Counted from the stretch's first letter, positions 231-44,024 are shown. The stretch is DNA of 64,000 bases from Clostridia bacterium (GCA_045123995.1 JBGVKY010000014.1:201860-265859); one strand, 5' to 3'. The notes: generated from the letters alone by a model not told the origin. Made by a program: numbers and translations.

Positions 231-247
231 GCAGTCTTATTTTTTTG
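211..247. terminator. Bidirectional intrinsic terminator between convergent genes
   Basis: Stem ATAAGACTGC (217-226) / GCAGTCTTAT (231-240) with loop TTGA. An A-run lies upstream and a T-run (241-246) downstream. Confidence 0.6.
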
Positions 248-830
248 AATCCTGAGGTTTTTTATTGAACTTTCTTCTGAAGTTTCTGTTATGCGGTTTA
301 AAAGGAATTGGAGCAGGCTTATTTTCTCCATCTGGAGATGCGCTCTTAGCCTGTGCAACCGGTTTTTCTGACGGTTTTGTTTCTTCGGGTCTTTTATGAT
401 TAACAGAAGAATTTCTGTTTCTGTGATGGTTCTGATAATTACCCTTTCCGTTTCTCTGTCCGTTGTGACGGTTATGATTTTTATGAGAGTCATCTGCTGT
501 GCGGGATGAATGTTCGTGATTTCTCTGAGGAGCTTTCTTAATAGGAACATCCACATCGGGAAGAGGGGGGATGGGATCGAATACCGTGGGAATTAAAAAT
601 ATTTCGTCTCCGTCGATAATCTCGCATTCTTCAAAGGTTTTAGAAAGGTCTTCTAATGCTTTGCCGTTATGCATAACCTGAAATGTTTTGGGGTCACTTG
701 AATCTACAATAAACTGAAATCCGATAAGTTTTTCAAGCATTACTCCGACAGGGATATCACTCGTAAGACGGTACTTTAATTTTCTTGTATCGTCCTTTCC
801 GTATATAAATGTGATTGTAAGCTTCTGCAT
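237..830 (-). CDS. Hypothetical protein with an N-terminal ubiquitin-like (YukD/EsaB-like beta-grasp) domain and a His/Asn/Arg/Lys-rich disordered tail
   Basis: Preferred start is the ATG at 830, with a GAAAGGAA RBS 7 nt upstream. The N-terminus MQKLTITFIYGKDDTRKLKYRLTSDIPVGVMLEKL...ECEIIDGDEIFLIP resembles YukD-type beta-grasp proteins. The C-terminal ~110 aa are low complexity (NHEHSS..HKNHNRHNGQRNGKGNYQNHHRNRN). Confidence 0.6.
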   Translation of the reverse strand: MQKLTITFIYGKDDTRKLKYRLTSDIPVGVMLEKLIGFQFIVDSSDPKTFQVMHNGKALEDLSKTFEECEIIDGDEIFLIPTVFDPIPPLPDVDVPIKKAPQRNHEHSSRTADDSHKNHNRHNGQRNGKGNYQNHHRNRNSSVNHKRPEETKPSEKPVAQAKSASPDGENKPAPIPFKPHNRNFRRKFNKKPQDSKK

Positions 831-843
831 AATAAAATTCCTT

Positions 844-1599
844 TCAAAATAAGCACGGAGTGCTTTTCTTTGCAATTTTCAAATTAAAGGGAAAATTCAA
901 TTCCCTTAAGGTATTAAAGGTTGAATTGAACGCTAAATCTTCTGTGTTGTTATGTTCGCTTAAATGGGCGAGAAGGAAGTTTTTGGTTCCGGATAAAAGA
1001 AGTTCTCTGCAAACCTTTGCACAGTCCAAATTAGAAAGATGCCCCTTTTCACTTTTTATTCTTGCTTTAAGAAAATAAGGATAAGGCCCGTTTTTAAGCA
1101 TTTCTTCGTCGTGGTTTGATTCAATTATAACACCTTCTGAGCCCTTAAGATATGAAAACATTTCTTCTGTGACCAATCCTGTATCAGTGAGAATTGATAC
1201 CTTGGAAAAAGACGTTGTAAACGTAAATCCCAGTGAAGAGGGGGTATCGTGAGAAGAAGCAAATGGTGTTACTGAAACATCATTTATGTAAAAAGACTCT
1301 CCTTCTTTTACTGTAATAAATTGTTCTTTTGGGATCAAAATGCATTCTTTTTTTGTTTCCTCAGTTGTATATACGGGAATATCAAATTTCTTAGCCAGGA
1401 TATGAGCTCCCTTAATGTGGTCTGTATGAGGATGGGTGATTAAAAGAGCATCAGGTTGGGAAATTCCCAGTTCTGATAAGCCTTCCATAGCTTTTTTAAG
1501 ACTTATACCGCAATCGGTCATTATAAAAGTATTGCCCGACAAAATGATGCTTGAGTTTCCGCTGCTTCCGCTGGCAATGGTGCCTATCTTAAAGCTCAT
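844..1599 (-). CDS. MBL-fold metallo-hydrolase (YycJ/WalJ-like)
   Basis: HPHTDHIKG (HxHxDH) motif, ~250 aa, and an N-terminus GSSGNSSII typical of YycJ-like proteins. ATGA overlap with the murA stop at 1596-1599. Confidence 0.8.
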   Translation of the reverse strand: MSFKIGTIASGSSGNSSIILSGNTFIMTDCGISLKKAMEGLSELGISQPDALLITHPHTDHIKGAHILAKKFDIPVYTTEETKKECILIPKEQFITVKEGESFYINDVSVTPFASSHDTPSSLGFTFTTSFSKVSILTDTGLVTEEMFSYLKGSEGVIIESNHDEEMLKNGPYPYFLKARIKSEKGHLSNLDCAKVCRELLLSGTKNFLLAHLSEHNNTEDLAFNSTFNTLRELNFPFNLKIAKKSTPCLF

Positions 1600-2948: not shown

Positions 2949-4070
2949 TTATATAAAGAGTATTATGGTCATTGCAATGGTGAGTAAAAACACAAAGGAA
3001 AAGTTAAAAAGTGAAAAAAGACCGATATAACGCCAGGATTTCCCGGGATTATATTTAAGATATTCTCTGAAAGTGATTAAACTTGCGAGGGAAGCAATAA
3101 GTGTTCCTGCACCGCCTATATTTACGCCTAAAAGAAGTTCCTTATAGTTCGCTGTAAACTGTGAAAGTAAAATAGCAGAGGGTACGTTACTTATAAACTG
3201 ACAGGATAAAATTGAAAAGACCAAAGTGTTTTTTGATAAAAGTGAAGAAAAGAAATCCCGAACCAGTGGAATTCTCGCCATATTCCCTGAAAAAATAAAG
3301 AAGAAGAAAAAGGTGAATAAAAGGGGATAATCCACCTTTTTAAGGGCGTCTCTGTCTAAAAACAAAAGGGAAATCAAAATTATCAAAAGGCCCAGTAAGT
3401 AGGGAATTCCCTTAAAAACAATTAAAATAGAAAGGGCAAAAAGCAAAAGATATATGGTTTCTTTCTTCTTGTCCGTTGGGATTTCTTCGTCAGCAATTAA
3501 AAGAGGCTCTTTTTTTATAAAAAGGCAGCAGACTGTAATTAGTATAACTGAAATTATAAAGGGCGGAGCCATGATTTTCACAAATTCAAGTGTGGGAATT
3601 TCAAACTTGGAATAAAGATAAAGATTTTGCGGATTTCCAAAAGGAGTAAGCATTCCTCCTAAGTTTGCGGCAATATTCTGCATGATAAAAGTGAAAGCCA
3701 TGAGCTTTTCTTTCTTTGTACTGGTAAGAATGAGATATCCCAGGGGAAGGAAGGTTATAAGAGCCATGTCATTTGCGATGAACATGGAGCCTATAAATGT
3801 TATGTAAACCAAAGCCAGGATGGCATTTTTGGTATTTTTGAAGGACTTTACAATTTTTTTTGCCAGTATATAGAAAAAGTTTATGTTTTTAAGGGCACAA
3901 ACCACAGAAAGCACGGAAAAAAGACAGGCTAAGGTCTTAAAGTCAAAATATCCAAGATACCCTTTATCCGGCGGTATAATAAGCGTGGTTACTGCCGCCA
4001 GAAAAAGGGCAATAAACATCACGGCATTTTTCATTATGAATTTTTTTATCATGAAGATCAGCTCCGTCAT
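2949..4070 (-). CDS. Polytopic permease, ArsB/NhaD (citrate-transporter-like) superfamily
   Basis: About 11 predicted TM segments and a GNPQNLYL motif typical of this superfamily. The start at 4070 overlaps the upstream stop (TAATG). Alternative ATGs lie at 4052 and 4034. Confidence 0.6.
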   Translation of the reverse strand: MTELIFMIKKFIMKNAVMFIALFLAAVTTLIIPPDKGYLGYFDFKTLACLFSVLSVVCALKNINFFYILAKKIVKSFKNTKNAILALVYITFIGSMFIANDMALITFLPLGYLILTSTKKEKLMAFTFIMQNIAANLGGMLTPFGNPQNLYLYSKFEIPTLEFVKIMAPPFIISVILITVCCLFIKKEPLLIADEEIPTDKKKETIYLLLFALSILIVFKGIPYLLGLLIILISLLFLDRDALKKVDYPLLFTFFFFFIFSGNMARIPLVRDFFSSLLSKNTLVFSILSCQFISNVPSAILLSQFTANYKELLLGVNIGGAGTLIASLASLITFREYLKYNPGKSWRYIGLFSLFNFSFVFLLTIAMTIILFI

Positions 4071-6643
4071 TAAATATCTATATTGATTCTGTTAAAAGCA
4101 TTGTTTTCAGACTTTTCCGCGATTATTTTTCTCATGGAGGAAAGTGAAGATTGGACTTCTTCGAAAAACTCCGTTGCACTCACTCTTATAGCTCCGTGAC
4201 CAAAGATAATAACCTGCTCTAAAAAGTCTCCTGTTGCAACTAAAACTCTGTAATTTTTACTAAGTTCCTTTGAGGTTTTTTCAATGTAGGAATCGGCAGT
4301 TTCCGCCGTTTTTGTATATACCACTTTGATGCCGTTCACATCTTCAATGTCACGGCCCGGCCTTTTAACCTTGTATGCATCGAACACCAAAATTATATTA
4401 TGGCTGTTTAAGGCGTTATAGCTACATACCTTATCTATAAGTAAATCTCTGGCTGCATCTATATTTTTTTCTGCTAAAGCCTTGGTTTCGGGCCAGGAGA
4501 AAATAATGTTATAGCCGTCGATCAAAAGATAGGTGGGAAGAGGCTTATATGGCTTTGAAGCTTGTTTTTTGGTGGGAACGGGAGTGTTTTCTCTTTTTTC
4601 GGCATCAGGCTTTCTTTCTTTGATTTTACCGTAGGTACGTTCGAAAATTTCTAAAAGCTCATCTTCTGAATAATTTTTCTTTTTGGGCGGCTCGGTAATC
4701 AAACAAAGCTCCTCTTTCGGGCTTTCGGGCATGGGAAGATGCATATATTTTGTAACTTCATTCCATTTCGCCGTAAAGCCGCTTCCTCCGGCACAGAAAA
4801 CTGAATCGGGAGTATTTCTTAAATCGCTCTCAGGGTCGTATAGAGAGTTTTCAATAACCTCTTTTGGATTTATACAAAGGTCATAACCCGAGAAAGAAAA
4901 AGAAATATTGCCCTCTCCGTGAGTATAGGAACTTATTTCATCCGGATATTCTGAAATTAAAGAAACCGGAGCTCGTCCTTTTATTATAGAAATTTCCTTT
5001 TCGGTAAGGGGCGAAGAAAAGGATGCACCCATTCTGTCTAAGTCTGATAAGGCACGGCCCACTGATTTAGTGGGAACTTTCAATAAAAAGTCATAGTAGG
5101 GCTCTAAAAGCTGACTTTCTCCCTGCATTAAGCCCTGACGAACGGCACGGTAGGTTGCCTGACGGAAGTCGCCGCCCTCTGTATGCTTTAAGTGGGCTTT
5201 TCCGTTTATAAGGGTTATTTTGACATCAGTTAAGGGAGCTCCTGTGAGGACTCCTCTGTGATTTTTTTCCGCAAGATGGGTAAGTATGAGTCTTTGCCAG
5301 TTTTTAGAAAGTAAATCCTCGGAAATATCCGTGGCAAATAAAAGGCCTGAACCACGGGGTGCTTCTTCAAGTTTTAAGTGAACCTCCGCATAATGGCGTA
5401 AAGGCTCGAAGTGACCGAATCCGTAGGATGTCCCTTTTAAGGTTTCTTTGTATAAAATTTTTCTGCTTTCAAAAGCCACATCTAAAGAAAAACGTTCTGA
5501 TAAAATTCTTTTTAATACTTCAAGCTGGATTTTACCCATAACGCTGACGTCGATTTTTCCTGTATCTTCCGAAAAGGAAACGGATAATTTTGTTTCCTCC
5601 GCTTCAAGTTTACGGAATGAAGATAAGGCATAAGAAAGGTCTGTTCCCTCTTTTAAGGTAACCGTATAAGTGAAAACACTTTCTGATAAAAGGGAGGGAG
5701 GATTTTTTTCAAAACCCAGCCCGATTCCTGCTTCTACGGAAGAAAGTCCGGTAAGAGCCACCACCTGACCGGGGAGGGCTTCTCTTACGGGAGTGAAAGA
5801 ACTGCCGTGATAAATTCTTATCTCGTTGATTTTTTCTTCTCCGTCTTTTCCGGGAAGGGTCTTTTTTACTTCAAGGCTTCCGCCGGTTATCTTGACGTGG
5901 GTAAGTCTCTGACCCTTGTCGTCTTCTGAAATTTTAAAAACTTTTCCGCCGAAGTCCTTGGGGTATATTATCTCTTTTGTTAAATCAAAAAGGGAGGTTA
6001 AAAATTCTTCTACACCATCGCCTTTTAATGCCGAACCAAAAAAGCAGGGAAAGATTTTTCTTTCTTTTATGGCATCTTTTAAGGAATCGGTTTTGATTTT
6101 TCCCGTATCTAAAAATTCCTCCAAAAGCGTTTCTGAATTGGTTGCAACATTTTCAAAAAAAGTCTCGTCAATCACGGAAAAATCTTGACACAGGGGAGAG
6201 AGCTTGTCCTTTATTTCGGTAATTAAAGAAGACTTGCCCTCATTAAAAAGGTCGGTTTTATTTATAAAAATAAAGGTGGGGATTTTATAGTGCGATAAAA
6301 GATTCCATAAAGTAACGGTATGGCTCTGGACGCCCGAGGGAGCGCTTATAAGCAAAACGGCATAATCAAGAACCGAAAGCACACGTTCTGCTTCGGCTGA
6401 AAAATCAACGTGACCGGGAGTGTCCAATAGAGTGATTTCTGTGGTTTCGTTTTTTATTATTGCTTGCTTCGAAAAAATAGTTATTCCGCGGTCTTTTTCT
6501 ATTTCGTTGGTATCTAAATATGCATTTTTGTAATCGACTCTTCCCTTGGTACGAATGGAACCCGAAGTGTAAAGCAAAGCCTCCGACAAGGTGGTTTTTC
6601 CCGAGTCAACGTGAGCTAAAATTCCCAAAACTAATCTTTTCAT
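4070..6643 (-). CDS. Translational GTPase (TetM/EF-G-like, five-domain) fused to a C-terminal YacP/Rae1-like NYN ribonuclease domain
   Basis: G1 AHVDSGKT (aa 10-17), G2 RGITI, G3 DTPGH, G4 NKTD, and colinear TetM-like blocks (GKVFKI, LLEPY). A K/P/E-rich linker spans aa 640-703. It is followed by LLIDGYNIIF..VFDAY..ETADSYIE..VATGD. One uninterrupted 857-codon ORF. Confidence 0.85.
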   Translation of the reverse strand: MKRLVLGILAHVDSGKTTLSEALLYTSGSIRTKGRVDYKNAYLDTNEIEKDRGITIFSKQAIIKNETTEITLLDTPGHVDFSAEAERVLSVLDYAVLLISAPSGVQSHTVTLWNLLSHYKIPTFIFINKTDLFNEGKSSLITEIKDKLSPLCQDFSVIDETFFENVATNSETLLEEFLDTGKIKTDSLKDAIKERKIFPCFFGSALKGDGVEEFLTSLFDLTKEIIYPKDFGGKVFKISEDDKGQRLTHVKITGGSLEVKKTLPGKDGEEKINEIRIYHGSSFTPVREALPGQVVALTGLSSVEAGIGLGFEKNPPSLLSESVFTYTVTLKEGTDLSYALSSFRKLEAEETKLSVSFSEDTGKIDVSVMGKIQLEVLKRILSERFSLDVAFESRKILYKETLKGTSYGFGHFEPLRHYAEVHLKLEEAPRGSGLLFATDISEDLLSKNWQRLILTHLAEKNHRGVLTGAPLTDVKITLINGKAHLKHTEGGDFRQATYRAVRQGLMQGESQLLEPYYDFLLKVPTKSVGRALSDLDRMGASFSSPLTEKEISIIKGRAPVSLISEYPDEISSYTHGEGNISFSFSGYDLCINPKEVIENSLYDPESDLRNTPDSVFCAGGSGFTAKWNEVTKYMHLPMPESPKEELCLITEPPKKKNYSEDELLEIFERTYGKIKERKPDAEKRENTPVPTKKQASKPYKPLPTYLLIDGYNIIFSWPETKALAEKNIDAARDLLIDKVCSYNALNSHNIILVFDAYKVKRPGRDIEDVNGIKVVYTKTAETADSYIEKTSKELSKNYRVLVATGDFLEQVIIFGHGAIRVSATEFFEEVQSSLSSMRKIIAEKSENNAFNRINIDI
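4154..4534 (-). other. NYN (YacP/Rae1-like, PIN-like) nuclease domain portion of the fusion protein
   Basis: aa ~704-830: TYLLIDGYNIIFSWPE...NIILVFDAYKV...KVVYTKTAETADSYIEK...YRVLVATGDFLEQ. Four conserved acidic positions occur in the order expected for YacP-like NYN domains. Confidence 0.7.
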
Positions 6644-7380
6644 AACTTAAGTGTAATTTCTCCTGAATCAAGGATTTCAAATCCGTCTTCTTTTTCTATC
6701 AAAAGGGCACCTGAATCTAAAATTTCTCTGGCAAACCCTCTATATTCGTTATTGTTTTTTATATAAGTTACTTCTCTTCCTAAAACAAGGCTGTTTTCTC
6801 TGTAAGTTTTCATAAAGGATAAGTCAAAAGGCTTTTTCCAAAAGGTGAGAAGTCTTCTGATAAGATCCGAGGCGAGGAGATTTATGTCCACATCTTTGTT
6901 AAGCGAGGAAGCTATATCCTTTAAGGAATCGGGAAAGGATTGAGTGGTTAAATTTATGCCGATACCTATAAGAATAAAAGAAGTTTCTCCTTTTACCGAT
7001 TCGGTTAAAATTCCTGAAATTTTTCTGCCGGAAATATATAGGTCGTTAACCCATTTTATAGAGCATTTTACCCCGGTAAGGCTTAAGATGGAGTCAAAAA
7101 CCGCAACGGAAGAAGCAGTTGTTATATAGATATGGTTTTGCGTCTTATCAGAAAAGGGAAGGGCCAAAGTTAAATAAAGCCCGGTATCTTTAGGGGAGAA
7201 AAAGCTTTTGCCCTGTCTGCCTCGGCCTTCTGTCTGCTCTTTTGAAATTACCAAAAAGGGTGTTTTACTTCCGGCTTTAACTACTTCTTTTGCAAAGGTG
7301 CTGGTGGAGGAAATGGAGTCGAAAAAATAGATATCATTGATTTCGGGAATAAGTGATCTGAGTTTTTCTTCGTCAATCAT
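6640..7380 (-). CDS. birA: Biotin--[acetyl-CoA-carboxylase] ligase (group I, no HTH domain)
   Basis: GRGRQGKSFFSP and KWVNDLY motifs, 246 aa. Overlaps both neighbours (7373-7380 and 6640-6643). Confidence 0.85.
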   Translation of the reverse strand: MIDEEKLRSLIPEINDIYFFDSISSTSTFAKEVVKAGSKTPFLVISKEQTEGRGRQGKSFFSPKDTGLYLTLALPFSDKTQNHIYITTASSVAVFDSILSLTGVKCSIKWVNDLYISGRKISGILTESVKGETSFILIGIGINLTTQSFPDSLKDIASSLNKDVDINLLASDLIRRLLTFWKKPFDLSFMKTYRENSLVLGREVTYIKNNNEYRGFAREILDSGALLIEKEDGFEILDSGEITLKL

Positions 7381-8821
7381 TTTCTCTCCTCCTTTTAAGC
7401 GAGATAAATAAGATTAAAAGTGAAAATAAGATAATAGGTATATCACCCCAGAGAGTATAAAGGGTGGGGGAATCTATAAGAAGTACATTTTCTGTAAGGG
7501 ACCCTTCTTTGCCTGTGTCAAGATGTGATAAGATATTTCCCTTTGTGTCTATAAATGCAGAAATTCCTGTGGAAGCACTTCTCACCACATATTTTCTGTT
7601 TTCTACCGCACGGAATATGCTGTGGCACAAGTGGAGATAGGCACTTCTTCCTTTGGAAAACCATGAGTCATTGGTGGAAATGCAAAGGATATTAGCACCA
7701 TTTTTTGAAGTCTCCCTGGAAAAGTCAGGGAACATGGAATCAAAGCATATAACAGCGCCGATTGAAATGCCATCCTTCGTAAGTGGAACGGATGAATTCC
7801 CCATTGAAAACCCTACATCTTTTAATTCAGGGAAAAACAAATCAAGCAAAGGATAATATTCACCGTAGGGAACTAAATGTCTTTTGTGAAAAACCTGGTC
7901 ATCCCCCGGGATAAGGTATGATGATGTGTATTTTTTATCTTCAGTTTCATCTTCATATAAAGCTCCAAGCAGGGCGACAACTCCATTTTCTTCAGCAGTA
8001 TTTTTCATTTTATCAAAAAAAGGACTTTTATTAAGATAAAGGGGGATGGCGCTTTCTGCAAAAACTATAAGGTCAGCACCCTTTAATTCTTCCGTAGTTT
8101 CTTCAATTATTTTGTTTGGCGGTGTTGTCCATTTCACAAAGGTCCCGTATCCGTTCTGCACACATTTGGCGGTGATTTTTTCACCCTTTTCCGGAGAAAA
8201 ATATAAAAAGGAAGAGAGAAGTATATTAACCAAAAGTAAAGCTACGGGAGAAATCATATATTTTATGTTTTTCTCATGAAAGGACATAGCCAGAGAGGAA
8301 GAAAAATATATTATAATAAAAGAAATAAAGAGCATGCCGAATATTGAAGCAGTCTGTATCAAAAAAGGGAATGAAGCAAGGGGCAGAGAAATTCTACCCC
8401 AGGGATATCCAAGGGGTGTTGCAGGAAGAGAAATTATATATTCATATAAAACCCAAAGGCTTGAAAAAATGAGAGGGGAACTTTTTTTGGCTGCCCTTTT
8501 TTGGAAATATGAATAGACTTTTGCAAATAAACCCGCAAAAAGCCCCTCAGCTAAAATTACGATGCAATAAGCAATCAAAGGAAACAGCTTTCTAAAAAGA
8601 GAACTTTCTGAAAGATGCGAAAGATCGAGGCTTGATAGAAACAAAGAGTTTATAAGGAAAAAAAAGAAACCAAACAAAAAGCCCTTGGCAAAGCACCTCT
8701 TTTCGTTTAGGAGGGAAAGGAAAAATAACGAAGGTGAAATAAAAAGAAAGGGCCATGTATTTTCTGTGATAAATGAAAGGCCTGATAAAAATGCTGAAAC
8801 CAGGCAAAAAACAATGTCCAT
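7373..8821 (-). CDS. lnt: Apolipoprotein N-acyltransferase
   Basis: The N-terminal half is multi-TM and the C-terminal half is a CN-hydrolase domain. The E-K-C triad context is intact (IVFAESAIP, HKRHLVPYGEY, VICFDSMFP). Confidence 0.75.
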   Translation of the reverse strand: MDIVFCLVSAFLSGLSFITENTWPFLFISPSLFFLSLLNEKRCFAKGFLFGFFFFLINSLFLSSLDLSHLSESSLFRKLFPLIAYCIVILAEGLFAGLFAKVYSYFQKRAAKKSSPLIFSSLWVLYEYIISLPATPLGYPWGRISLPLASFPFLIQTASIFGMLFISFIIIYFSSSLAMSFHEKNIKYMISPVALLLVNILLSSFLYFSPEKGEKITAKCVQNGYGTFVKWTTPPNKIIEETTEELKGADLIVFAESAIPLYLNKSPFFDKMKNTAEENGVVALLGALYEDETEDKKYTSSYLIPGDDQVFHKRHLVPYGEYYPLLDLFFPELKDVGFSMGNSSVPLTKDGISIGAVICFDSMFPDFSRETSKNGANILCISTNDSWFSKGRSAYLHLCHSIFRAVENRKYVVRSASTGISAFIDTKGNILSHLDTGKEGSLTENVLLIDSPTLYTLWGDIPIILFSLLILFISLKRRREND

Positions 8822-8947: not shown

Positions 8948-10270
8948 GTGGTAAAAATAGATAGGTTTGTTATATATGTATGTAAAGTGATTTCTCTTAT
9001 ATGTACCATTCTGGGCGGAGGAAGTGCTCTTCCCGGTAAAATTGCTCTTAAAATCCGCCCCTCTATACTTAAAAAGGCGGCAGAGGGCTATAAGGTTATT
9101 ATGGTAACAGGTACCAACGGAAAAACTACTACCAGTGCTCTTATAACGGGAACTTTACGTCATGCAGGATTGAGGGTTGTAAGTAACAGTCAGGGTGCAA
9201 ATATGATAGACGGAATAGTTACTTGCTTTATAAAAAATTACAAAAAAGGTGAAGTTGCCGTAATCGAATGTGATGAAGCTTACACGAGGGTTGTAAACCG
9301 CTATATAAAGCCTGAATTTATGGTTATAACAAATGTTTTCAAAGACCAGATGGACCGTTTCGGTGAGGTTTCCTACACATGGGGCAAGATAAAGGACGCA
9401 ATAAAACTCTCTCCTGAAACTACCCTTGTATTCAACGGAGATTTACCTCTTTTCAGGAAAAATGAGTTTCCTAACCCTTCATATTATTTCGGTTTTAATG
9501 AGGGAAAGGCTGATACAGGGGTTAATACCGAACCCGCATACTGCGATGAATGCGGAGAAAAATATAAGTATAATTATATTACCGCCAAAAATCTTGGGGA
9601 CTACTATTGTCCTTCCTGCGGCGCTAAAAGACCTCACTGTGCCTTTAGACTTGACTCAGTAGAAGAAATAAATTCGGAAAGCTCCAGGGTTTTGATAAAC
9701 GGAATTTCTGTTTCCTTATCTGTGGCGGGTATATATAATATATATAACGCTCTGGCTGCTTTTTCCGTAGCTTCCTTAATGGGGATTGATTCTCTTATAA
9801 TCAAACAGGGCATTGAAAGACAACAAAGCTGCTTTGGACGTGATGAAGTGGTTAAAGTGGGCTCTGCCGAGCTTCAGATTTCGCTGGTTAAAAACCCTAC
9901 CGGCTGTGATCTATGCATAGATACAGTTTCTCTCTATAAGGAAAAGTGCAATCTTTTAGTTATCTTAAATGATAACTGGGGAGACGGAAAGGATGTTTCC
10001 TGGGTTTGGGAAGCCTCCTTTGAAAAGCTTTTAACCATGGACTTTGACAAAGTTATAGTCGGCGGAACAAGATATATGGACATGGCGGTAAGGCTTAAAT
10101 ACGCTTCCTTTCCTAAAGAAAAAATGGTGCTTTGTGAAACTGAAGAGGAGATAATAAAGGCTGTAAAAGAATCATGTCACAAGGTGTTTGGTCTTTGCAC
10201 TTATACGGGCATGACATCTTTGAGAAAGACCTTGCACTCTAAGGGATTTATAAAAGATTTGTGGAAATAA
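8948..10270 (+). CDS. murT: Lipid II isoglutaminyl synthase, Mur-ligase subunit
   Basis: GTNGKTTT P-loop, Cys4 ribbon CDECGEKY..CPSCG, and C-terminal DGKDVSWVW (DUF1727-type). GTG start at 8948, and start choice is uncertain. Confidence 0.85.
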   Translation: MVKIDRFVIYVCKVISLICTILGGGSALPGKIALKIRPSILKKAAEGYKVIMVTGTNGKTTTSALITGTLRHAGLRVVSNSQGANMIDGIVTCFIKNYKKGEVAVIECDEAYTRVVNRYIKPEFMVITNVFKDQMDRFGEVSYTWGKIKDAIKLSPETTLVFNGDLPLFRKNEFPNPSYYFGFNEGKADTGVNTEPAYCDECGEKYKYNYITAKNLGDYYCPSCGAKRPHCAFRLDSVEEINSESSRVLINGISVSLSVAGIYNIYNALAAFSVASLMGIDSLIIKQGIERQQSCFGRDEVVKVGSAELQISLVKNPTGCDLCIDTVSLYKEKCNLLVILNDNWGDGKDVSWVWEASFEKLLTMDFDKVIVGGTRYMDMAVRLKYASFPKEKMVLCETEEEIIKAVKESCHKVFGLCTYTGMTSLRKTLHSKGFIKDLWK

Positions 10271-10280
10271 GAGGGATTTT

Positions 10281-10991
10281 ATGGAACTTGAAATAGCATA
10301 TCTTTATCATGACCTTTTAAATACCTACGGGGACGAAGGAAATATAAAGATACTTAAAAAAAGGGCAGAAAGCCGTGGTATAAAGGTTAATACAGAAAGA
10401 ATATCCGTTGGTGACAGCATAAAATCAGCGGACATACTCTTTATCGGCGGAGGCCAGGATAAGGAACAAAAAATTGCCGCAGAGGATCTCATTAAAAATA
10501 AAAAAGACTTCTTGGAAGGCTACTTAAAAGACGGAGGTTCTGGTCTTTTTGTCAGCAGCGGTTTTGAGATAATGGGAGATTATTTCTTTGATGAAGCAGA
10601 AAATAAAATAAAGGGAGCATCAATTCTTCCCATTCATACAGAGTTTGGCGGTGAAAGAAGGACAGGGAATATCTTTGTCAGAAGCTCCCTTGAAACATTA
10701 GTGGGTTTTGAGAATCACGGCGGAAGAATCTATCTTGATGGCGGAGAATCTTTGGGTGAAGTGATTTTGGGATTCGGCAACAACGTAAGAGATAAAACCG
10801 AGGGCTGTGTATATAAAAACTTCTGGGGGACCAATATGCACGGACCGCTTTTATCCAAAAATCCCGCTTTTGCGGACAATATCATAAGAAGTGCCATGAT
10901 AAGAAAATATGGCTCATTTGTTTTAGAGCCGCTTGACGATTCGTTGGAACTTTTGGCAAAGAAGAAAATTACAGAAAGATTTATTAGGTGA
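10281..10991 (+). CDS. gatD: Lipid II isoglutaminyl synthase, glutamine amidotransferase subunit (nucleophile position is Ser, not Cys)
   Basis: CobB/CobQ-like GATase colinear with GatD (FIGGGQDKEQ, VGFENHGGR, GTNMHGPLLSKN), immediately downstream of murT. The expected CGG(Y/F)Q motif reads SSGFE (codons at 10554-10568). Confidence 0.85.
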   Translation: MELEIAYLYHDLLNTYGDEGNIKILKKRAESRGIKVNTERISVGDSIKSADILFIGGGQDKEQKIAAEDLIKNKKDFLEGYLKDGGSGLFVSSGFEIMGDYFFDEAENKIKGASILPIHTEFGGERRTGNIFVRSSLETLVGFENHGGRIYLDGGESLGEVILGFGNNVRDKTEGCVYKNFWGTNMHGPLLSKNPAFADNIIRSAMIRKYGSFVLEPLDDSLELLAKKKITERFIR

Positions 10992-19180: not shown

Positions 19181-20020
19181 TCAGTCCGTTTCTACAGAGC
19201 AGATGGAATCATCTTCTGTTTTGCATGGTTTATCCTGCTGCCTGGGAGGGAAAAATTCGTCCATGGGAAAACTAAGCTCACGGAACATATCGCAGGGACT
19301 TGTGGGAGCTGGAATATCTTCTGCGTGACAGTCGGAATCGGGGATACAGAAGCTTGAAGCAGGGACAGAAATCTGAACTTCTCTTTCAAGTCTTACCAAA
19401 AGGAAGAGACCAAGTGTTACATAAACGCTCTTGCCGCAATCGGGAACAATCAAAGAATTATCGAAAAGTCTATGTACACACTGGGGAAGATGAGTTATAT
19501 CGCATTCGCATCCGGGAAGAACCTGATCTGAAAGAACCAGAGTGTCAAGCACTAAGGGGTCAACCACTTCAGCTACGGCATTTGGCATATTTGTCTTTTT
19601 CCAGGTAGCAATATCGAAGCTGTCTTCCTTGTACTTTGACTGGAAAATTTTAGCTTCACCGGTGGAGCCGAAAAGAACAACTTTCTTTTCATAATAGGCA
19701 AGACCGTCTATGCTTAAAGGTCTTGAAAGACCGGTATAGGCATTTACCTCCACCTTGAAAAAGAATTTTAAGTTAACAGAGTAATATCCTTTATGGAAGG
19801 GTAGTGACTCAACATCTGAAAAAATCCATATGACTTCGGCTTTTTCTGCGGTTATTTTAGTTGCTGAATCAATAATTTCCTGATTTTCGCGGGTAAAATA
19901 AACTCTTAAGTTTTCAATGCATTCTTTTGCTCTGCAGGAATCATAAATCTGAGATGCGTTTATGCAAACGTTTTCGGTGCAGGAACTGCATTCTGCAGCA
20001 GATAAAATCTTATCGTCCAT
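19181..20020 (-). CDS. Cys-rich hypothetical protein (279 aa), no family recognised
   Basis: ATG at 20020 with a GGAGGA RBS. N-terminal CSSCTENVCINASQIYDSCRAKEC cluster and C-terminal CECD..C..C..C..C..C..C residues (17 Cys in total). No signal peptide and no TM segment. Confidence 0.6.
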   Translation of the reverse strand: MDDKILSAAECSSCTENVCINASQIYDSCRAKECIENLRVYFTRENQEIIDSATKITAEKAEVIWIFSDVESLPFHKGYYSVNLKFFFKVEVNAYTGLSRPLSIDGLAYYEKKVVLFGSTGEAKIFQSKYKEDSFDIATWKKTNMPNAVAEVVDPLVLDTLVLSDQVLPGCECDITHLPQCVHRLFDNSLIVPDCGKSVYVTLGLFLLVRLEREVQISVPASSFCIPDSDCHAEDIPAPTSPCDMFRELSFPMDEFFPPRQQDKPCKTEDDSICSVETD

Positions 20021-20106
20021 AAAATCCTCCTTATAAATAAGCCAAAAGGCTCTTTTCAATACATATTATGACAGTTGTGCCAAAATGTGAAAAAATATTG
20101 ATAAAT

Positions 20107-20566: not shown

Positions 20567-20689
20567 AATATTCCATGATGTATTATGGTTTATTATGCCC
20601 TTACATTATTATATTAGCATAAAATTTTTTCAAATGCAAGAATTTTTTTAGATTTTTTTAAGCCTTAGGGCTTGGAAAGGAAGGTCAGT

Positions 20690-23600
20690 ATGGCACAGCC
20701 TAAGAAAACCGATGTAAAAGACGAAAAGTTCTTTGCCTCAATCTGCCAGCAGGCTAAAGAAGCAGGCGTTTTATTACATCCGGAAAAAATGGGAAAAAAC
20801 ACCAGACTCAGCTTTTCTAAAATCGATGAAGTGTTGGAAATGCCCAACCTTATTGATGTGCAGAAAAAGTCGTATCAGTGGTTTTTAGAGGAGGGATTAA
20901 AGGAAGTATTTCATGATATATCTCCTATTAAGGACCATAACGGTACTCTCATGCTGGAATTTATCGACTATCATTTAGACGATAAGCCCAAGTATTCCAT
21001 TGAAGAATGCAGAGAGCGTGACACCAACTATGCGGCTTTGTTAAAGGTAAGAGTAAGACTTATCAATTTAGAATCCGGCGAAATCAAGGAACAGGACATC
21101 TTTATGGGTGATTTCCCATTGATGACCGATCAGGGAACATTCATTATAAACGGTGCTGAAAGAGTTATCGTTTCTCAGCTTGTACGTTCTCCCGGCATAT
21201 ATTTTACAAAGGACAGGGATAAGAACGGAAAGCCCTTAATCAGCTCACAGATGATTCCTAACCGCGGTGCTTGGCTTGAATACGAAACAGATTCCAATGA
21301 TGTTTTCTATGTTCGTATTGACAGAACAAGAAAGCTTCCCGTAACTCAGCTTATAAAAGCTTTAGGTATTGATACCGAAGCAGAAATTATGGAAGTATTC
21401 GGTGAAGACGAGAGATTAAGAAGCACTCTGGAAAAGGATCCCACAACATCCAAGAGAGAGGCTATGTTCGAAATTTACAAAAAGCTTCGTCCCGGCGAAC
21501 CTCCCACGGATGACAGTGCCCAGACCCTTATAAACAATTTATTCTTTGATCCCAAGAGATATGACCTTGCTAAGGTTGGTCGTTACAAATATAATAAGAA
21601 GCTTTCCATGATAGGAAGAATTTCAGGTCATACAGCGGCAGAGGATATAATTGATCCTGATACAGGTGAAATCATCGTTGAGGCAGGCAAGGTGATTTCC
21701 AAGGAAGATGCTAAAAATATCGACTATGCAGGTGTAAACGTTGTCATGGTTTATCCCGGCAGCAAGGCGGTAGAGGCAGGAGCATCTCCCATAAAGGTAT
21801 TCTCCAATGACATGGTTCATGCAGAGAAGTATCTTGAATTTGATCCTAAAGAATGCGGTATTACCGAAAAGGTAGTCCGTGAAGTACTGATGGATATACT
21901 CGAAAACAATAAGACTGAAGAAGAGATTAAAGAAGCTTTGACTCTCCGTAAGGATGAGCTTATTCCCAAGCACGTTACAATCAACGATATCTTTTCTTCC
22001 ATTAACTATGCAACAAATCTCATAAGCGAAATCGGAAAAGACGACGATATCGACCACTTAGGAAACAGAAGACTTCGTTGCGTTGGCGAACTTTTGCAGA
22101 ATCAGTTCCGCATGGGTCTTGCAAGAATGGAAAGAGGCGTTCGTGAAAGAATGTCCATTCAGGAGCTTGACTCCGCAACTCCCCAGAGTCTGGTTAATAT
22201 CCGTCCTGTTGTTGCAACAATAAAGGAATTCTTCGGTTCATCTCAGCTTTCTCAGTTCATGGACCAGAATAACCCCTTGTCTGAACTTACTCATAAGAGA
22301 AGACTTTCAGCTCTTGGTCCTGGCGGTCTTTCCAGAGACAGAGCGGGCTTCCAGGTTCGAGACGTTCACTATACACACTACGGCAGAATGTGTCCCATTG
22401 AAACCCCTGAAGGTCCCAACATCGGTCTTATTAACTCTCTTTCCATATATGCAAGAGTAAATGAGTATGGTTTCATTGAAGCTCCTTACCGTAAGGTTAT
22501 AAAGGGTGAAGGCATAATTACCGATGAAATCGAATATATGACCGCAGACACAGAAGACGAATATATCGTTGCTCAGGCAAACGAGCCTATTGATGAGAAC
22601 AACAAGTTTGTTGACAAGAAGGTTGCGGCACGTTACCGTGACCAGATTATGGAAATCGAAGCTGCAAAGATTGACTACATGGACGTATCGCCCAAACAGC
22701 TTATCTCTGTTGCTACTGCCATGATTCCCTTCCTTGAAAACGACGACGCTAACCGTGCACTCATGGGTTCAAACATGCAGCGTCAGGCAGTTCCGCTTCT
22801 CCGTACAGATTCTCCTATTGTAGGAACAGGTATGGAATATAAGGCAGCCCGTGACGCAGGTGTTGTTCAGCTTGCTAAAAATGATGGTGTTGTAGAAAAA
22901 GTTTCTGCAGACTATATCGGTATCCGTACAGAAAACGGAGAACTTGAAGAGCATAAGCTTGTTAAGTTTACACGTTCCAACCAGGGAACATGCTTTAACC
23001 AGAAGCCCATTGTAAACTGCGGCGACAAGGTTAAAAAAGGCGATGTTATCTGCGACGGTCCTGCAATCAGCCAGGGCGAGCTTGCACTGGGTAGAAATAT
23101 GTTAATCGGATTTATGACCTGGGAAGGTTATAACTACGAGGATGCAGTATTACTCAATGAAAGACTTGTAAGAGAAGATATATATACAACAATTCACATT
23201 GAAGAATATGAATCAGAGGCGAGAGATACAAAACTCGGCCCTGAAGAAATCACATATGATATTCCCAATGTGGGTGAAGATGCTCTTAAATATCTTGATG
23301 AAAGAGGTATTATAAGAGTTGGAGCCGAGGTAAGAGCAGGGGATATCTTAGTAGGTAAGGTTACTCCCAAGGGAGAGACAGAGCTTACTCCCGAAGAGAG
23401 ACTTCTCCGTGCAATTTTCGGCGAAAAGTCAAGAGAAGTAAGAGATACATCGCTCCGTGTACCTCACGGTGAGTGCGGTATTATCGTTGACGTTAAGGTA
23501 TTCACCAGAGAAAACGGCGACGAAATGCCTCCCGGAGTTAATAAACTTGTAAGATGCTACATTGCTCAGAAGAGAAAAATCTCCGTGGGCGATAAGATGG

Positions 23601-24517
23601 CAGGACGTCACGGTAATAAGGGTGTCGTTTCAAGAATTCTTCCTGAAGAAGATATGCCTTACCTTGCAGACGGTACTCCCTTAGAGATTGTATTAAATCC
23701 CTTGGGCGTTCCTTCTCGAATGAACATCGGTCAGGTGCTTGAAGTACATCTTGGTATGGCTGCAAGTAAATTTGGTGTAAAGATTGCAACTCCCGTATTT
23801 GACGGCGCAAGCGAAGAAGATATTACAAAGCTTCTTAAAGAGGCAGGTTGCTCCGAAAACGGAAAGACCACATTGTACGACGGACGTACAGGCCGACCCT
23901 TTGACAACCCTGTTACCGTTGGTTATATCTACTTCCTTAAATTGCTCCACTTGGTTGATGATAAGATGCATGCTCGTTCCACAGGCCCTTATTCTTTGGT
24001 AACTCAGCAGCCTCTGGGTGGTAAAGCTCAGTTCGGCGGACAGAGATTCGGTGAAATGGAAGTTTGGGCTCTTGAAGCATACGGCGCAGCTTATACACTT
24101 CAGGAAATCTTAACAGTTAAGTCTGACGATATTGTAGGACGTGTTAAGACTTACGAATCCATCGTTAAGGGAGAAAATATTCCTAAGCCTGGAATTCCCG
24201 AATCCTTTAAGGTATTGATTAAGGAAATGCAGAGCCTTGGTATGGATATTAAGGTTATGGGCAATAACAATGAAGAAATTGAGCTTAAGGACACAGATGC
24301 CGACGATTACGATGAACCTTCAATGGATACCATGGAAGAATTCAAACGCAACATGGTTGATGACAGAAGAGAAGAGGCAGGTTTCGTTCCCGAAGAAGAT
24401 TCCGAAAGCATTTTCGAAGCTTCCGAGGACGAAGAAGATGATATGTTGTTAGATGAAACTCTTGAGGAATTCGAAGAAAATATTCCTGAAGATGACATCG
24501 AAGAAGATTTTATGTAA
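20690..24517 (+). CDS. rpoB: DNA-directed RNA polymerase subunit beta
   Basis: Full-length RpoB similarity ([40 protein letters not shown], acidic C-terminal tail). ATG at 20690 with a GGAAAGGAAGG RBS. Confidence 0.97.
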
Positions 24518-24535
24518 GAAAGGGGCCGAGATAAA

Positions 24536-27500
24536 ATGGTAGAATTTAACACATTTAATTCAATAAAAATCGGTCTGGCATCGCCGGATAAGATTAGAGA
24601 CTGGTCCCATGGCGAGGTTAAAAAGCCTGAAACCATAAATTACAGAACATTAAAGGCAGAACGTGACGGTTTGTATTGCGAAAGGATTTTTGGCCCCCAG
24701 AAGGACTGGGAATGTGCCTGCGGTAAGTACAAGAGAGTACGTTATAAAGGCATTGTCTGCGACCGATGTGGCGTTGAAGTTACAAAATCTAAAGTTCGCC
24801 GCGAAAGAATGGGTCATATTGAGCTTGCAGCTCCGGTTTCCCACATCTGGTTTTTTAAGGGAATTCCATCAAGAATAGGTCTTTTCCTTGATATATCTCC
24901 CAGAATTCTGGAAAAAGTATTATATTTCGCAGCTTATATGGTTGTGGATCCCGGCAGAACCGAGCTTGAAAAGTATCAGTGCTTAAGCGAAAAAGAGTAT
25001 CACGAAACCAAGGAAAAATACGGTGATGCATTTAAAGCAGGTATGGGTGCTGAAACCATCAAGGAACTTTTAGAGGATATTGATATTGAAGAGCTTTCTG
25101 CACAGCTTCATGAGGAGCTTGAAGATGCTCAGGGACAGAAAAAGGCTCGTATTATAAAGAGACTTGAAGTAATCGAAGCTTTCCGTCAGACAGAAATGGC
25201 TAAGATTATTCCCGGTGTGAGCCTTGGAGGAAGACCCTTGTCTGCTCCCGTTGAAAACCCCGTAACAAACGAGGTTTATCCCTATAATCACGTTTTGACA
25301 TTAGATGAAGTTAACAGCCTTGCAGATGCAGGTATTACAGAGGTAAGTGTATATGTAAATTCACCCTCCTGGATGATTATGACAGTTCTTCCCGTAATTC
25401 CTCCGGAAATCCGTCCCATGATTCAGTTGGACGGCGGAAGATTTGCAACAAGTGACTTAAACGACTTATACAGACGTGTCATTAACAGAAACAACCGTCT
25501 TAAGAGACTTTTAGAACTCCGAGCTCCCGAAATTATTGTAAGAAACGAAAAGAGAATGCTCCAGGAAGCTGTTGACGCACTTATAGACAACGGCAGAAGA
25601 GGAAGACCTGTAACAGGCCCCGGAAACAGAGCACTTAAATCTCTTTCCGATATGCTTAAAGGTAAGCAGGGTCGTTTCAGACAGAACCTTCTTGGTAAGC
25701 GTGTTGACTATTCCGGACGTTCGGTTATCGTTGTTGGTCCCGAACTTAAGATTTATCAGTGCGGTCTTCCCAAGGAAATGGCAATTGAGCTCTTCAAGCC
25801 CTTCGTAATGAAGAATCTTGTAGAACAGGGAATTGCTCACAATATAAAGAGTGCAAAGAGAATGGTAGAGCGTATCAAGCCCGAAGTCTGGGATGTTTTG
25901 GAAGATGTAATAAAAGAACACCCCGTTCTTTTGAACCGTGCTCCCACACTTCATAGATTAGGTATTCAGGCATTTGAACCCATCTTGGTAGAAGGTAGAG
26001 CTATTAAGCTTCATCCTCTGGCTTGTACAGCGTTCAATGCAGACTTCGACGGTGACCAGATGGCAGTACACGTTCCTCTTTCACCCGAAGCTCAGGCAGA
26101 AGCAAGATTCTTGATGCTTTCTGCAAACAACCTCTTAAAGCCTCAGGACGGAAAGCCCGTTACAGTTCCTACTCAGGACATGGTTCTCGGTGCATACTAC
26201 CTTACCATGGAAAGAGAAGATGAACCGGGAGCAGGCAAGTTCTTCGCAAGCCCTACAGAGGCAATGCTTGCTTATGAAAACGGAGATGTTGCTATTCATG
26301 CTCCTATAAAGGTAAAGAGAAGTCTTGAAGTTGAAATACTTGATAAGGCAACAGGAGAGAAGACAGTTCATAAGGCAGAAGGGTTTGCTGATATTACAAT
26401 CGGCAGAATGATATTCAACGGAAAAGTTCCTCAGGACCTCGGTTTCGTAGACAGAAAAGCTCCCGTTATTGATTCTTCAAAATTAAACGAAGAAGAACTG
26501 ACAGGAGAAATTGAAGCAATCTTAAAGGATGCGCTTAAATACGAAATCGTTACCCTTACAGGCAAGAGCGGACTTGGAAAGATAATCAACAAGTGCATTA
26601 AGAAGCATGGCGCAACTCATACAGCAGTTGTACTTGACGACCTTAAATCTATGGGTTATCACTATTCTACAATCGGTTCAATCTCCATCTCTGTTGCAGA
26701 TATGGTTGTTCCCGAGAAGAAGAAAGAATACCTTAAGGAAGCAGAGGCTCAGGTTGATAAGATTGAAATGCTCTTCAAGATGGGTCAGCTTTCCGATGAT
26801 GAACGTTACAGACATGTTATCAAGGCTTGGGAAGAGGCAAACGAAAAGATTACCAAGGCTCTTATGGATAACTTGGATCCCTATAACTCACTATTTATGA
26901 TGGCGGATTCCGGTGCCCGTGGTAGTAAGAATCAGATCAGACAGCTTGCAGGTATGCGTGGTCTTATGGCGGATACTCAGGGTAGAACAGTAGAAATTCC
27001 CATCAGAGCAAACTTCCGTGAAGGTCTTAATATTCTTGAGTATTTCATATCTTCACACGGTGCAAGAAAAGGTCTTACAGATACAGCTCTTAAGACTGCT
27101 GACTCAGGATATCTTACAAGAAGACTTGTTGATGTCAGCCAGGATGTCATAATAAGAGAAGAAGACTGCCATTCCAAGGACGGTATTTTGGTATCTTCCA
27201 TTAAGGACGGCAACGAAATGATAGAATCCATTTCCTCTCGTCTTTCAGGCAGAGTTCCTGTTTATGATATTGTTGATCCCGCTACAGGCGAAGTTCTTGC
27301 TAAAGCAAATGAAATCATAAAAGATGAAGAAGCTGCTATGATTGAAAAGGCAGAAATTTCCGATATTTTAGTTCGTTCAGTTCTTACCTGCCGTGCTAAG
27401 ATTGGTGTATGTGCTAAGTGCTATGGTGAAAACTTAGCTACAAGTGCACCTGTAAATATCGGTGAAGCTGTTGGTATCATTGCCGCTCAGTCCATCGGTG

Positions 27501-28312
27501 AGCCCGGTACTCAGCTTACAATGAGAACCTTCCACTCCGGCGGTGTCGCATCTAACGACATCACACAGGGTCTTCCCAGAATCGAAGAACTTTTTGAAGC
27601 AAGAAAGCCCAAGGGTCTTGCTACGATTACTGAAATTGACGGTACTGTTAAGTTGAACGAAACAAAGCAGAAGAGAGAAGCTATTGTTACAAATAACGAA
27701 ACAGGCGAAGCCGAAACCTATACAATACGTTACGGAGTTGAGCTTAAGGTTAAGGACGGTGACAGCGTAAATGCCGGTGATGCACTTACAAAGGGTCCCG
27801 TTAACCCCGCAGATATACTTCGTATCAAGGGCAAGGATGCGCTTCATCAGTATATGATCCAGGAAGTACAGAGAGTTTACCGTCAGCAGGGTGTTGAAAT
27901 TTCCGACAAGCACGTTGAAGTTATTGTTCGTCAGATGATGAAGAAGGTTCGTGTTGAGGAAGCAGGAGACACCAACTGGCTGGTTGGCTCAATGGTTGAA
28001 AGACTTGATTATATCTTGGCTTGTGAAGACGCTGAAGCAAAGGGAACCAATCCTCCGGTTTGCAAGGATGTATTGCTTGGTATCACCAAGGCTGCACTTG
28101 CAACAGATTCTTTCCTTTCTGCAGCATCATTCCAGGAAACAACCAGAGTTCTTACAGAAGCTGCAATCAAGGGCAAGAGCGATCCCTTATTAGGACTTAA
28201 GGAAAATGTTATCATAGGTAAGCTTATTCCTGCAGGAACAGGCGTAGACATCTATCAGAACATTGAACTTGAACATCCTATTGAAATGAGCGATATAAAC
28301 TATTTTGCTTAA
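24536..28312 (+). CDS. rpoC: DNA-directed RNA polymerase subunit beta-prime
   Basis: Zn ribbon [24 protein letters not shown] catalytic motif, and trigger loop/bridge helix regions. 1258 aa. Confidence 0.97.
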
Positions 28313-43937: not shown

Positions 43938-44024
43938 ATTTTTTTTTGACTTGCTTTTAATATGCTTATATGTTATTATAAAGGAGGAATTAGACAGTAT
44001 TATATTTTAATGGAGGGGATAAAA

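Follow-up and report, generated by a model that had tools for sequence, protein, structure and literature searches.

A chromosomal translational GTPase fused to a Rae1-type nuclease in Clostridia, a candidate for tethered mRNA cleavage on the ribosome

Rae1 (YacP), an endoribonuclease of the NYN type from Bacillus subtilis, is associated with ribosomes, cleaves upstream of stalled ribosomes and feeds the rescue pathway of transfer-messenger RNA (tmRNA) (PMC12407103). The 2025 study in which Rae1 cleavage was located 12 nt upstream of the codon in the A site of the stalled ribosome also raised the sensing of collided ribosomes as a possibility, and how and where Rae1 engages a stalled ribosome is still under structural study (PMC12407103). 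Proteins in which a Tet/TetM-like GTPase is joined to a NYN_YacP domain were described in Clostridia by Atkinson 2015 (PMC4342817) and also by Matelska et al. 2017 (PMC5499597). Here we analyse one such gene, located at positions 4070-6643 of a stretch of 64,000 nucleotides from a Clostridia bacterium (GCA_045123995.1 JBGVKY010000014.1:201860-265859), which in its full length is called the window below, and which encodes an 857-residue fusion of a translational GTPase (trGTPase) with a Rae1-type nuclease.

The gene is an ordinary member of a large, computationally described family. We give about even chances to the reading that the fusion is the Rae1 of its lineage, in which a tether to a GTPase that docks on ribosomes couples mRNA cleavage to translation, and that the gene is a chromosomal, vertically inherited translation factor of Clostridia. 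An earlier note on this DNA, made from the sequence alone, knew of no experimental description of the architecture; our full-text literature searches likewise found no experimental study of the fusion, although the architecture itself had been noted computationally in 2015 and 2017. As far as we found, what goes beyond those two papers is the scale of the family, the evidence against its membership of the Tet proteins, a module common to unfused GTPases, a length-conserved tether with a central helix, and canonical yacP loci that are empty in two fusion-bearing species.

Architecture of the fusion protein

The gene is a single uninterrupted open reading frame (ORF) of 857 codons with an ATG start, the stop codon being included in the interval 4070-6643. 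It lies on the minus strand, a point left unstated when the ORF was first reported, and the plus-strand translation of the same interval is riddled with stops. The start codon is confirmed because the homologues begin MKRLVIGILAHVD.

At the C terminus, residues 705-847 (4103-4531, minus strand) constitute a predicted endoribonuclease domain of the NYN_YacP/Rae1 type (Pfam NYN_YacP, 3.4e-46). Residues 706-847 score 157.7 bits against PF05991, for which the gathering cut-off is 24.6, and residues 705-844 align with B. subtilis YacP/Rae1 (5MQ8/5MQ9) at an expectation value (E) of 9e-26, D709 falling on Rae1 D7 and D806 on D104 of the Rae1 VATSD motif. D709, D755, D784 and D806 are invariant in an alignment of 37 homologues, to which all statements of invariance below refer, as are G710, Y711, N712, R732, T782, E788, T804, Q810 and R820 of the same domain, and the NYN motifs are present in 97-99% of the family sequences. 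Consistent with these matches, an AlphaFold2 model of residues 586-857 has Rae1 5MQ9 as its sole strong structural match (E 4.6e-12; template modelling (TM) score 0.75, target-normalised). The assignment of the C terminus to the YacP/Rae1-type NYN nucleases, made in the earlier note together with the suggestion of a structural comparison with Rae1, is thus borne out by domain profile, sequence alignment and predicted fold. The NYN domain looks catalytically competent, with a complete acidic active site, and, judging by the alignment, purifying selection has kept the catalytic residues of both GTPase and nuclease intact.

The first 636 residues are predicted to form a ribosome-dependent GTPase of a distinct EF-G/Tet-like subfamily, which would bind ribosomes. 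The G domain (residues 4-222; 5978-6634; Pfam GTP_EFTU, 1.6e-48) carries the motifs G1 AHVDSGKT, G2 RGITI, G3 DTPGH, which includes the catalytic H78, and G4 NKTD; all four motifs and H78 are invariant, and the G-domain motifs are present in 96-100% of about 280 family sequences. There follow domain II (residues 231-305; 5729-5953; EF-G_D2, 2.8e-07) and domain III (residues 320-391; 5471-5686; EFG_III, 1e-06), both above the gathering score, domain IV (residues 397-508; 5120-5455; EFG_IV, 9.1e-17) and domain V (residues 511-590; 4874-5113; EFG_C, 1.7e-15), all of them on the minus strand. The protein therefore has the features by which the EF-G/EF2 branch of the trGTPase superfamily is recognised, namely G1-G4, the catalytic histidine of switch II and domains II-V. 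The four GTPase motifs, H78 and the four aspartates that had been read from the DNA were all recovered in the translated ORF, each numbered residue in its place, and a Pfam scan, as had been proposed, placed GTP_EFTU, EF-G_D2, EFG_III, EFG_IV, EFG_C and NYN_YacP above their gathering scores.

The AlphaFold2 model of the fusion has a mean predicted local distance difference test (pLDDT) score of 77.9, and its N-terminal part is predicted to adopt the EF-G fold (Foldseek to EF-G structures, E 1.7e-51). The tip loops of domain IV bear invariant residues specific to the family, in GHxEPLRHYxEVH (family pattern G-x-G-H-x-EPLRHY-x-E-x-H) and in H484-x-K486-H487-T488-x-G-G-D-F-R. A search with domain IV aligns H484 with H573 of Thermus thermophilus EF-G, and the conservation of this tip, with a histidine equivalent to H573, makes it plausible that the tip touches the decoding centre in a functional way.

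Domain V is followed by a conserved module of residues 591-636 (4736-4873, minus strand), recognised from the alignment of homologues and modelled with a pLDDT of about 80 as a beta-hairpin with short helices. Its pattern is ...YDPESDLRNTPDSVFCxxGSGFxxKWxEVxxYMHL, with Y602, D607, N610, S614, V615, F616, C617, G620, W627 and V630 invariant. Residues 586-703, which comprise module and tether, gave no significant match in the Pfam scan or in a profile search against the PDB. The module is also found in unfused GTPases of the same subfamily. One of them, LSL_RS10690 on the megaplasmid pMP118 of L. salivarius UCC118 (positions 3228-5162 of its retrieved locus), has 644 residues, is 48% identical over 641 residues and reaches its C terminus nine residues past the module, and another, from Subdoligranulum variabile (3165-5141 of its locus), has 658 residues and ends ...DSVFCSHGAGYPVKWNEAPAQMHIQLK. 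The L. salivarius protein shares EPLRHY and GGDFRQA with the fusions, and both proteins have the terminal DSVFCxHGxG...W...MH module; they differ from the fusions in stopping a few residues past it, with neither tether nor NYN domain. As is true of the fusions, these uncharacterised proteins carry a Tet-family annotation. The L. salivarius protein, annotated as a TetM/TetW/TetO/TetS resistance protein, has as neighbours an rpsN (S14) paralogue and a gene for a 'metal homeostasis' peptide.

Since these GTPases end right after the module, it is the subfamily-specific C-terminal end of the GTPase half, of about 45 residues, and the existence of the unfused proteins indicates that the fusion joined two autonomous proteins. 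The end of the GTPase half had earlier been placed near residue 635, and the module 591-636 is now added as its conserved, confidently modelled end.

The remaining residues 637-704 (4532-4735, minus strand) form a predicted flexible tether, rich in K, E, P and R, with low pLDDT, conserved length and variable sequence. The description of residues 640-703 as a K/P/E-rich linker is only partly right: pLDDT falls below 50 in two stretches (641-658 and 672-699), and between them lies a conserved central helix that it had passed over. This helix motif, EDELLEIFERTYGKI, occupies residues 660-674 (4622-4666, minus strand) and was recognised from the alignment and from an AlphaFold2 helix at 660-671; its sequence, ELLEIFERTYGK, follows the pattern ELLxIFExTYGK, in which E668, Y671 and G672 are invariant. 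The motif occurs in 200 of 221 family sequences, about 33 residues from either end of the tether. In the same 221 sequences, a median of 75 residues separates the end of the module from DGYN (70-92 for the 5-95% range), and because the length is kept while the sequence drifts, the tether suggests a spacer whose reach matters.

The fusion family and its relation to tetracycline resistance proteins

A search of 5.8 billion proteins yielded more than 120 clusters at 90% identity with the full architecture, 54-88% identical. Residues 591-857, searched against representatives at 50% identity, gave 338 matches at E<=1e-30, the top 150 of which are full-length proteins of 820-1000 residues or fragments thereof, and a scan of one genome per GTDB species confirmed at least 579 relatives. 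The counts out of 80 given below are drawn from the best 80 of these at least 579 relatives, all 80 of which cover module, tether and NYN domain. Seventy-four of the 80 species-representative genomes encode the fusion as a single ORF of 836-906 residues with the G1, G3 and NYN motifs, and of the other six, five are cut by a contig end and one is broken. The latter is a 3136-bp contig from a metagenome-assembled genome of an uncultured Clostridia bacterium, the only one of the 80 loci in which the NYN part lies in an ORF of its own (232 residues) away from the contig end; it may reflect a frameshift, an assembly error or a genuine split.

The hosts are Clostridia, including Oscillospiraceae, Ruminococcus (among them R. 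flavefaciens ND2009), Intestinimonas butyriciproducens, Faecalispora jeddahensis, Congzhengia, Ruminiclostridium, Monoglobus pectinilyticus and the lachnospiraceous Agathobacter rectalis. This survey of spread and conservation, which the earlier note had advised, shows the fusion to be widespread in gut Clostridia, and the two halves, whose separation in close relatives would have spoken against a true fusion, lie in one ORF in the 74 intact genomes.

These counts bear directly on the alternatives that the fusion arose as an error of assembly or annotation, or that the gene is a pseudogene in decay. A few database entries do resemble separate proteins made of module and NYN domain. They proved to be fragments at contig edges or scaffold gaps, and such stand-alone proteins (P0128, P0129 and others) were rejected as a class of their own; among the fragment cases, one locus has a run of N and a duplicated IGYDPDAD, and another begins within the conserved PCxNxxEV stretch. 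Among matches of 250-380 residues with their start at the helix motif, most are chimeras or pieces of fusions with a long linker. With the same single ORF in 74 of 80 independent species genomes and with invariant catalytic residues, we regard the probability of an artefact or pseudogene as negligible. In one database protein of 414 residues (P0249), an RNase II/R-like C terminus with an S1 domain (...FTSPIRRYPDLAIHR...) comes after module, tether and NYN domain; this entry is a nuclease fusion of another kind or else a chimera of assembly.

A further question about the GTPase half is whether the fusion protects ribosomes from tetracycline with the help of an accessory RNase, which Atkinson 2015 (PMC4342817) suggested as a novel mechanism of resistance. 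Its top full-length matches among PDB sequences are TetO (1.2e-67) and TetM (7.4e-66), ahead of EF-G (2.7e-56), its top NCBIfam model is tet_protect, and the Prokaryotic Genome Annotation Pipeline (PGAP) gives family members Tet names. The curated cut-offs point the other way: the protein scores 395 bits against tet_protect (cut-off 775), 276 against tet_protect_M_W (1100), 285 against Otr(A) (900) and 247 against Tet(Q) (1425).

Domain IV is informative in this respect, as loop III is functionally the most important loop of Tet(M), in which some substitutions are nevertheless tolerated (PMC4750697). Loop III of the fusion equals that of TetO in length, which together with this tolerance in Tet(M) (PMC4750697) would be compatible with a protective function, but TetO Y506-Y507-S508-P509 aligns to A483-H484-L485-K486, a difference that, given the tolerated substitutions, is not decisive alone. 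YYSP is found in none of the about 280 family members, and domain IV by itself matches T. thermophilus EF-G (3.8e-09) more closely than it does TetO (1.3e-04) or TetM (3e-04). The profile of the module found no match to the C-terminal extension of Tet proteins. The gene is moreover chromosomal and host-like in GC content (40.1%, against 38.6% for the window), has no mobile elements or conserved resistance context around it, and shows a core-gene-like presence across hundreds of species. Taken together, the sequence comparisons indicate that the fusion is probably not a tetracycline-resistance gene, and we consider a protection protein with an accessory RNase improbable.

The prediction that automated pipelines would mislabel such genes was correct, since PGAP calls the A. 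rectalis member 'TetM/TetW/TetO/TetS family tetracycline resistance ribosomal protection protein'; the Monoglobus member is named 'translation factor GTPase family protein'. Hundreds of fusion genes and unfused relatives are annotated as tetracycline ribosomal protection proteins, which probably inflates resistome counts in gut metagenomes, and the family, being large, is medically adjacent through this mis-annotation.

Tethered mRNA cleavage and its alternatives

The fusion may take the place of stand-alone Rae1 where it occurs. The stand-alone NYN gene of C. difficile and of S. aureus lies in the order cysS-mrnC-rlmB-NYN-sigH-rpmG-secE-nusG-rplK. The fusion-bearing M. pectinilyticus has no NYN gene beside rlmB, which is followed there by a metallophosphoesterase gene and pgeF, and none before rpmG-secE-nusG, which is preceded by an unrelated gene; in the fusion-bearing A. 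rectalis, rpmG-secE-nusG is preceded by fliD, again with no NYN gene. A tblastn search with the NYN region found the fusion as the only match in Monoglobus records summing to at least 1.94 Mb, and a single site in a 252-kb A. rectalis record. Conversely, complete or large records of Bacillus, Listeria, Paenibacillus and Acetoanaerobium contain a stand-alone NYN gene and no module-bearing GTPase. This either/or pattern of fusion and stand-alone yacP, seen for two fusion species with incomplete genome records, is suggestive only, and the fusion probably replaces stand-alone Rae1 in the lineages that carry it.

We postulate that the GTP-bound GTPase half would dock at the factor-binding site of a stalled or paused ribosome whose A-site entrance is accessible, or alternatively of a ribosome that has collided behind a stalled one. 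The tether would then keep the nuclease within a fixed radius of that ribosome, close to the mRNA at its periphery. There the nuclease could cut either at the interface with a colliding ribosome or at the stalled ribosome's own 5' edge, a position that would correspond to the one cut by stand-alone Rae1 in B. subtilis. GTP hydrolysis, with H78 as the catalytic residue, would release and recycle the factor, the cut mRNA would be degraded and the ribosome rescued by tmRNA, as for Rae1. Ribosome binding, RNA substrate, stall sensing and the order of events are all inferred in this scheme; observed directly are the domain composition, the conserved catalytic residues, the size and taxonomy of the family, its variable and non-mobile genomic contexts, and the lack of yacP at its canonical loci in two fusion-bearing species.

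The scheme departs from the argument of the earlier note, in which the two halves converge on the ribosomal A site. That argument rests on a docking model of 2017 and is outdated, because Rae1 cuts are now placed 12 nt upstream of the A-site codon (PMC12407103), so that a shared A site no longer holds as the reason for the fusion.

Several points weigh against the tethered-Rae1 reading. Within one ribosome, the face of the 30S subunit that bears the factor-binding site is not the one on which the 5' edge is found, and the AlphaFold2 model shows no confident contact between the two halves (predicted TM score, 0.53). The target of the nuclease could be rRNA or tRNA instead of mRNA. The evidence for replacement comes from two species with incomplete records, and a yacP gene elsewhere in those genomes is possible. 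Bacillus and Listeria chromosomes present in the plasmid collection encode Rae1 with no module-bearing GTPase, and Rae1 therefore needs no such GTPase in general. For every member of the family, finally, the reading is built on sequence and models.

A different substrate is envisaged if the fusion is a nuclease of ribosome biogenesis or quality control, whose GTPase would dock on new or damaged ribosomes while the NYN domain cuts rRNA, either for final maturation or to start decay. Eukaryotes offer a precedent, in that cleavage of the 18S 3' end by the PIN nuclease Nob1 is stimulated by the GTPase eIF5B in 80S-like particles, and by analogy the fusion may resemble the Nob1/eIF5B pair. A role of NYN/YacP proteins in rRNA or tRNA maturation was proposed by Anantharaman and Aravind, as cited in PMC4342817, and stand-alone yacP lies in an rRNA-processing neighbourhood with mrnC (Mini-III) and rlmB (PMC5499597), as it does at the C. 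difficile and S. aureus loci. The housekeeping character and vertical inheritance of the gene would suit this explanation, as would a spore-forming host, in which ribosome turnover matters. Nevertheless, the fusion is unlinked to rRNA-processing genes in all 86 related loci, and the conserved tip of domain IV better fits mature, mRNA-loaded ribosomes; an rRNA-directed function is in our judgement unlikely.

The earlier note had also entertained a stress- or phage-triggered shut-off of translation, with the fusion acting as a toxin-like RNase delivered to ribosomes. RelE is a ribosome-dependent RNase that acts as such an effector, and a comparable mode of action might by analogy be imagined here; furthermore, the A. 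rectalis copy adjoins a BrnT/CopG toxin-antitoxin pair. Searches against PADLOC families gave no match at E<=0.01, however, and in the 86 related loci neither a defence island nor a recurring partner for immunity or as an antitoxin is present. The single intact ORF, found in at least 74 of the 80 genomes of different species, also speaks against a toxin-like effector, and the 'Bacteriophage sp.' records that match the fusion are unverified contigs with housekeeping genes. We consider shut-off highly improbable, and the suggestion of a defence role, with neither a PADLOC match nor a defence or mobile context behind it, is not upheld. As for the BrnT/CopG pair (4438-4946 of the A. rectalis locus), it is located immediately upstream of the fusion in divergent orientation, is present in no other locus, and its position is probably coincidental.

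Returning to the tethered-Rae1 reading, a more far-reaching version takes the fusion as a Rosetta stone, according to which the EF-G/Tet-like subfamily and Rae1 would be two halves of one pathway of the no-go-decay type. The GTPase would sense the stall or collision and license cleavage by Rae1, the tether with its central helix would be a molecular ruler that sets the cut site, and the unfused GTPases of lactobacilli and Subdoligranulum, at present annotated as tetracycline-resistance proteins, would be surveillance factors working with a separate Rae1. We put this forward tentatively, as a possibility with the odds rather against it.

Should the fusion be a tethered Rae1, abundant Clostridia of the human and ruminant gut, among them Ruminococcus, Oscillospiraceae, A. 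rectalis and Monoglobus, would use a GTPase-coupled nuclease for translation-linked mRNA surveillance, and the natural covalent tether would be a tool for the open question of where nuclease domains of the Rae1 type engage ribosomes.

Genomic surroundings and comparison with known systems

The fusion gene is flanked in the window by birA, encoding a biotin-protein ligase, upstream (6640-7380, minus strand) and by a gene for a CitMHS-family permease downstream (2949-4070, minus strand). The stop codon of birA and the start of the fusion share a 4-base ATGA overlap (...gttATGAaaag), and the stop codon of the fusion and the start of the permease gene overlap as TAATG, in the sequence atatttAATGacgg. 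Translational coupling on both sides had been deduced from these overlaps, which are real, but the arrangement is lineage-specific: birA, lnt and murA adjoin the fusion gene in none of the 86 related loci, and a CitMHS gene lies near it in only two of the 86. Clustering of the flanking ORFs of the 80 loci gave a largest recurring family present in just six loci, and a conserved operon partner was rejected, no neighbour recurring beyond 6 of 80 loci. The contexts are diverse, two examples being an SLH protein with an arginine operon and an ABC transporter with an EamA gene. No relevant cis-regulatory RNA was found with Rfam upstream of the gene in 21 loci and the window, and there is no second NYN or trGTPase paralogue within the window.

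The window is an ordinary chromosomal stretch that contains murA, lnt, birA, murT/gatD, spoVT, rpoB, rlmH, pfk, spoIID, trpS, addAB and asd, and the presence of spoVT and spoIID marks the host as a spore-former. No mobile elements were found in the window or in the flanks of the related loci, which carry housekeeping genes instead. Carriage on plasmids was considered and rejected, the plasmid matches being chromosome fragments labelled as plasmids, and so was carriage by phages, for which the two 'Bacteriophage sp.' matches were the candidates. Many of the 'plasmids' in PLSDB (NZ_OY725726-743 of Monoglobus, NZ_CP1496xx-CP1497xx of C. difficile single-cell origin and NZ_CP143948 of A. rectalis) are such chromosome fragments, with ribosomal-protein operons, rlmB, nusG and secA, and the phage record MT835563 carries housekeeping genes; presence in these records is therefore uninformative on mobility. 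In its behaviour the gene resembles a housekeeping function that stands alone and is inherited vertically.

Some other features of the window deserve mention. An lnt homologue (LNT_N and CN_hydrolase; 7373-8821, minus strand) heads the co-directional string lnt-birA-fusion-permease. The genome is that of a spore-former of low GC content within the Clostridia, and Lnt, which typifies diderms and Actinobacteria, is usually missing from Firmicutes. Divergent from lnt lies a pair of genes for MurT (Mur ligase and MurT_C) and a GatD-like glutamine amidotransferase (8948-10991, plus strand), which together constitute the system for iso-glutamate amidation of peptidoglycan. The rpoB-rpoC genes (20672-28312, plus strand) lack the usual preceding rpmG-secE-nusG-rplKAJL cluster, and have upstream of them genes for a DUF5662 protein, an rRNA methylase and an AraC regulator and an unannotated ORF. 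The canonical yacP position upstream of rpoB is thus occupied by unrelated genes in the window and is uninformative on yacP there, and the gene order is rearranged with respect to C. difficile, S. aureus, A. rectalis and Monoglobus. Four ORFs are without a Pfam match, at 43962-47126 (plus strand, 1054 residues), 33000-34541 (plus, 513), 19181-20059 (minus, 292) and 237-875 (minus, 212), the last of which has a TTG start and a low-complexity tail rich in His, Asn and Arg and overlaps an ORF at 179-556.

Among known systems, Rae1 of B. subtilis is the counterpart of the nuclease half, the C-terminal 140 residues aligning with it, all four acidic residues being kept and the predicted fold matching; both proteins would be expected to act on ribosome-bound RNA. 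Rae1 itself is a stand-alone protein of about 170 residues encoded in the cysS-mrnC-rlmB-yacP-sigH locus, whereas the nuclease described here is the C terminus of an 857-residue GTPase, follows a tether whose length and helix are both conserved, and occurs in unrelated genomic contexts, with none of cysS, mrnC, rlmB and sigH adjacent to the fusion in the window or in the 86 related loci.

For the GTPase half, Tet(M) and Tet(O) share the five-domain trGTPase architecture and a similar length, and are the best full-length matches among solved structures. They differ in the loop III motif at every position, and the fusion, unlike them, has a more EF-G-like domain IV and a different C-terminal module, scores far below the curated cut-offs, is not found on mobile elements and carries a nuclease. 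EF-G resembles the fusion in overall fold, in domain IV with the residue aligned to H573 and in the GTPase motifs, but the fusion reaches only 244.6 bits against the EF-G equivalog model (TIGR00484; cut-off 659.4), has a distinct loop I in domain IV (EPLRHY), and possesses in addition the module, the tether and the NYN domain.

In their proposed function, the nearest parallels are SmrB of E. coli and Cue2 of yeast, endonucleases that act on stalled or collided ribosomes (PMC12407103), although their nuclease fold is SMR, which is unrelated to the NYN fold predicted here. The tethered-Rae1 reading may be compared further with no-go decay. Hbs1-Dom34 follows an analogous logic, an A-site factor being delivered by a trGTPase, and no other known system joins a trGTPase and a nuclease covalently, as the clostridial fusion does.

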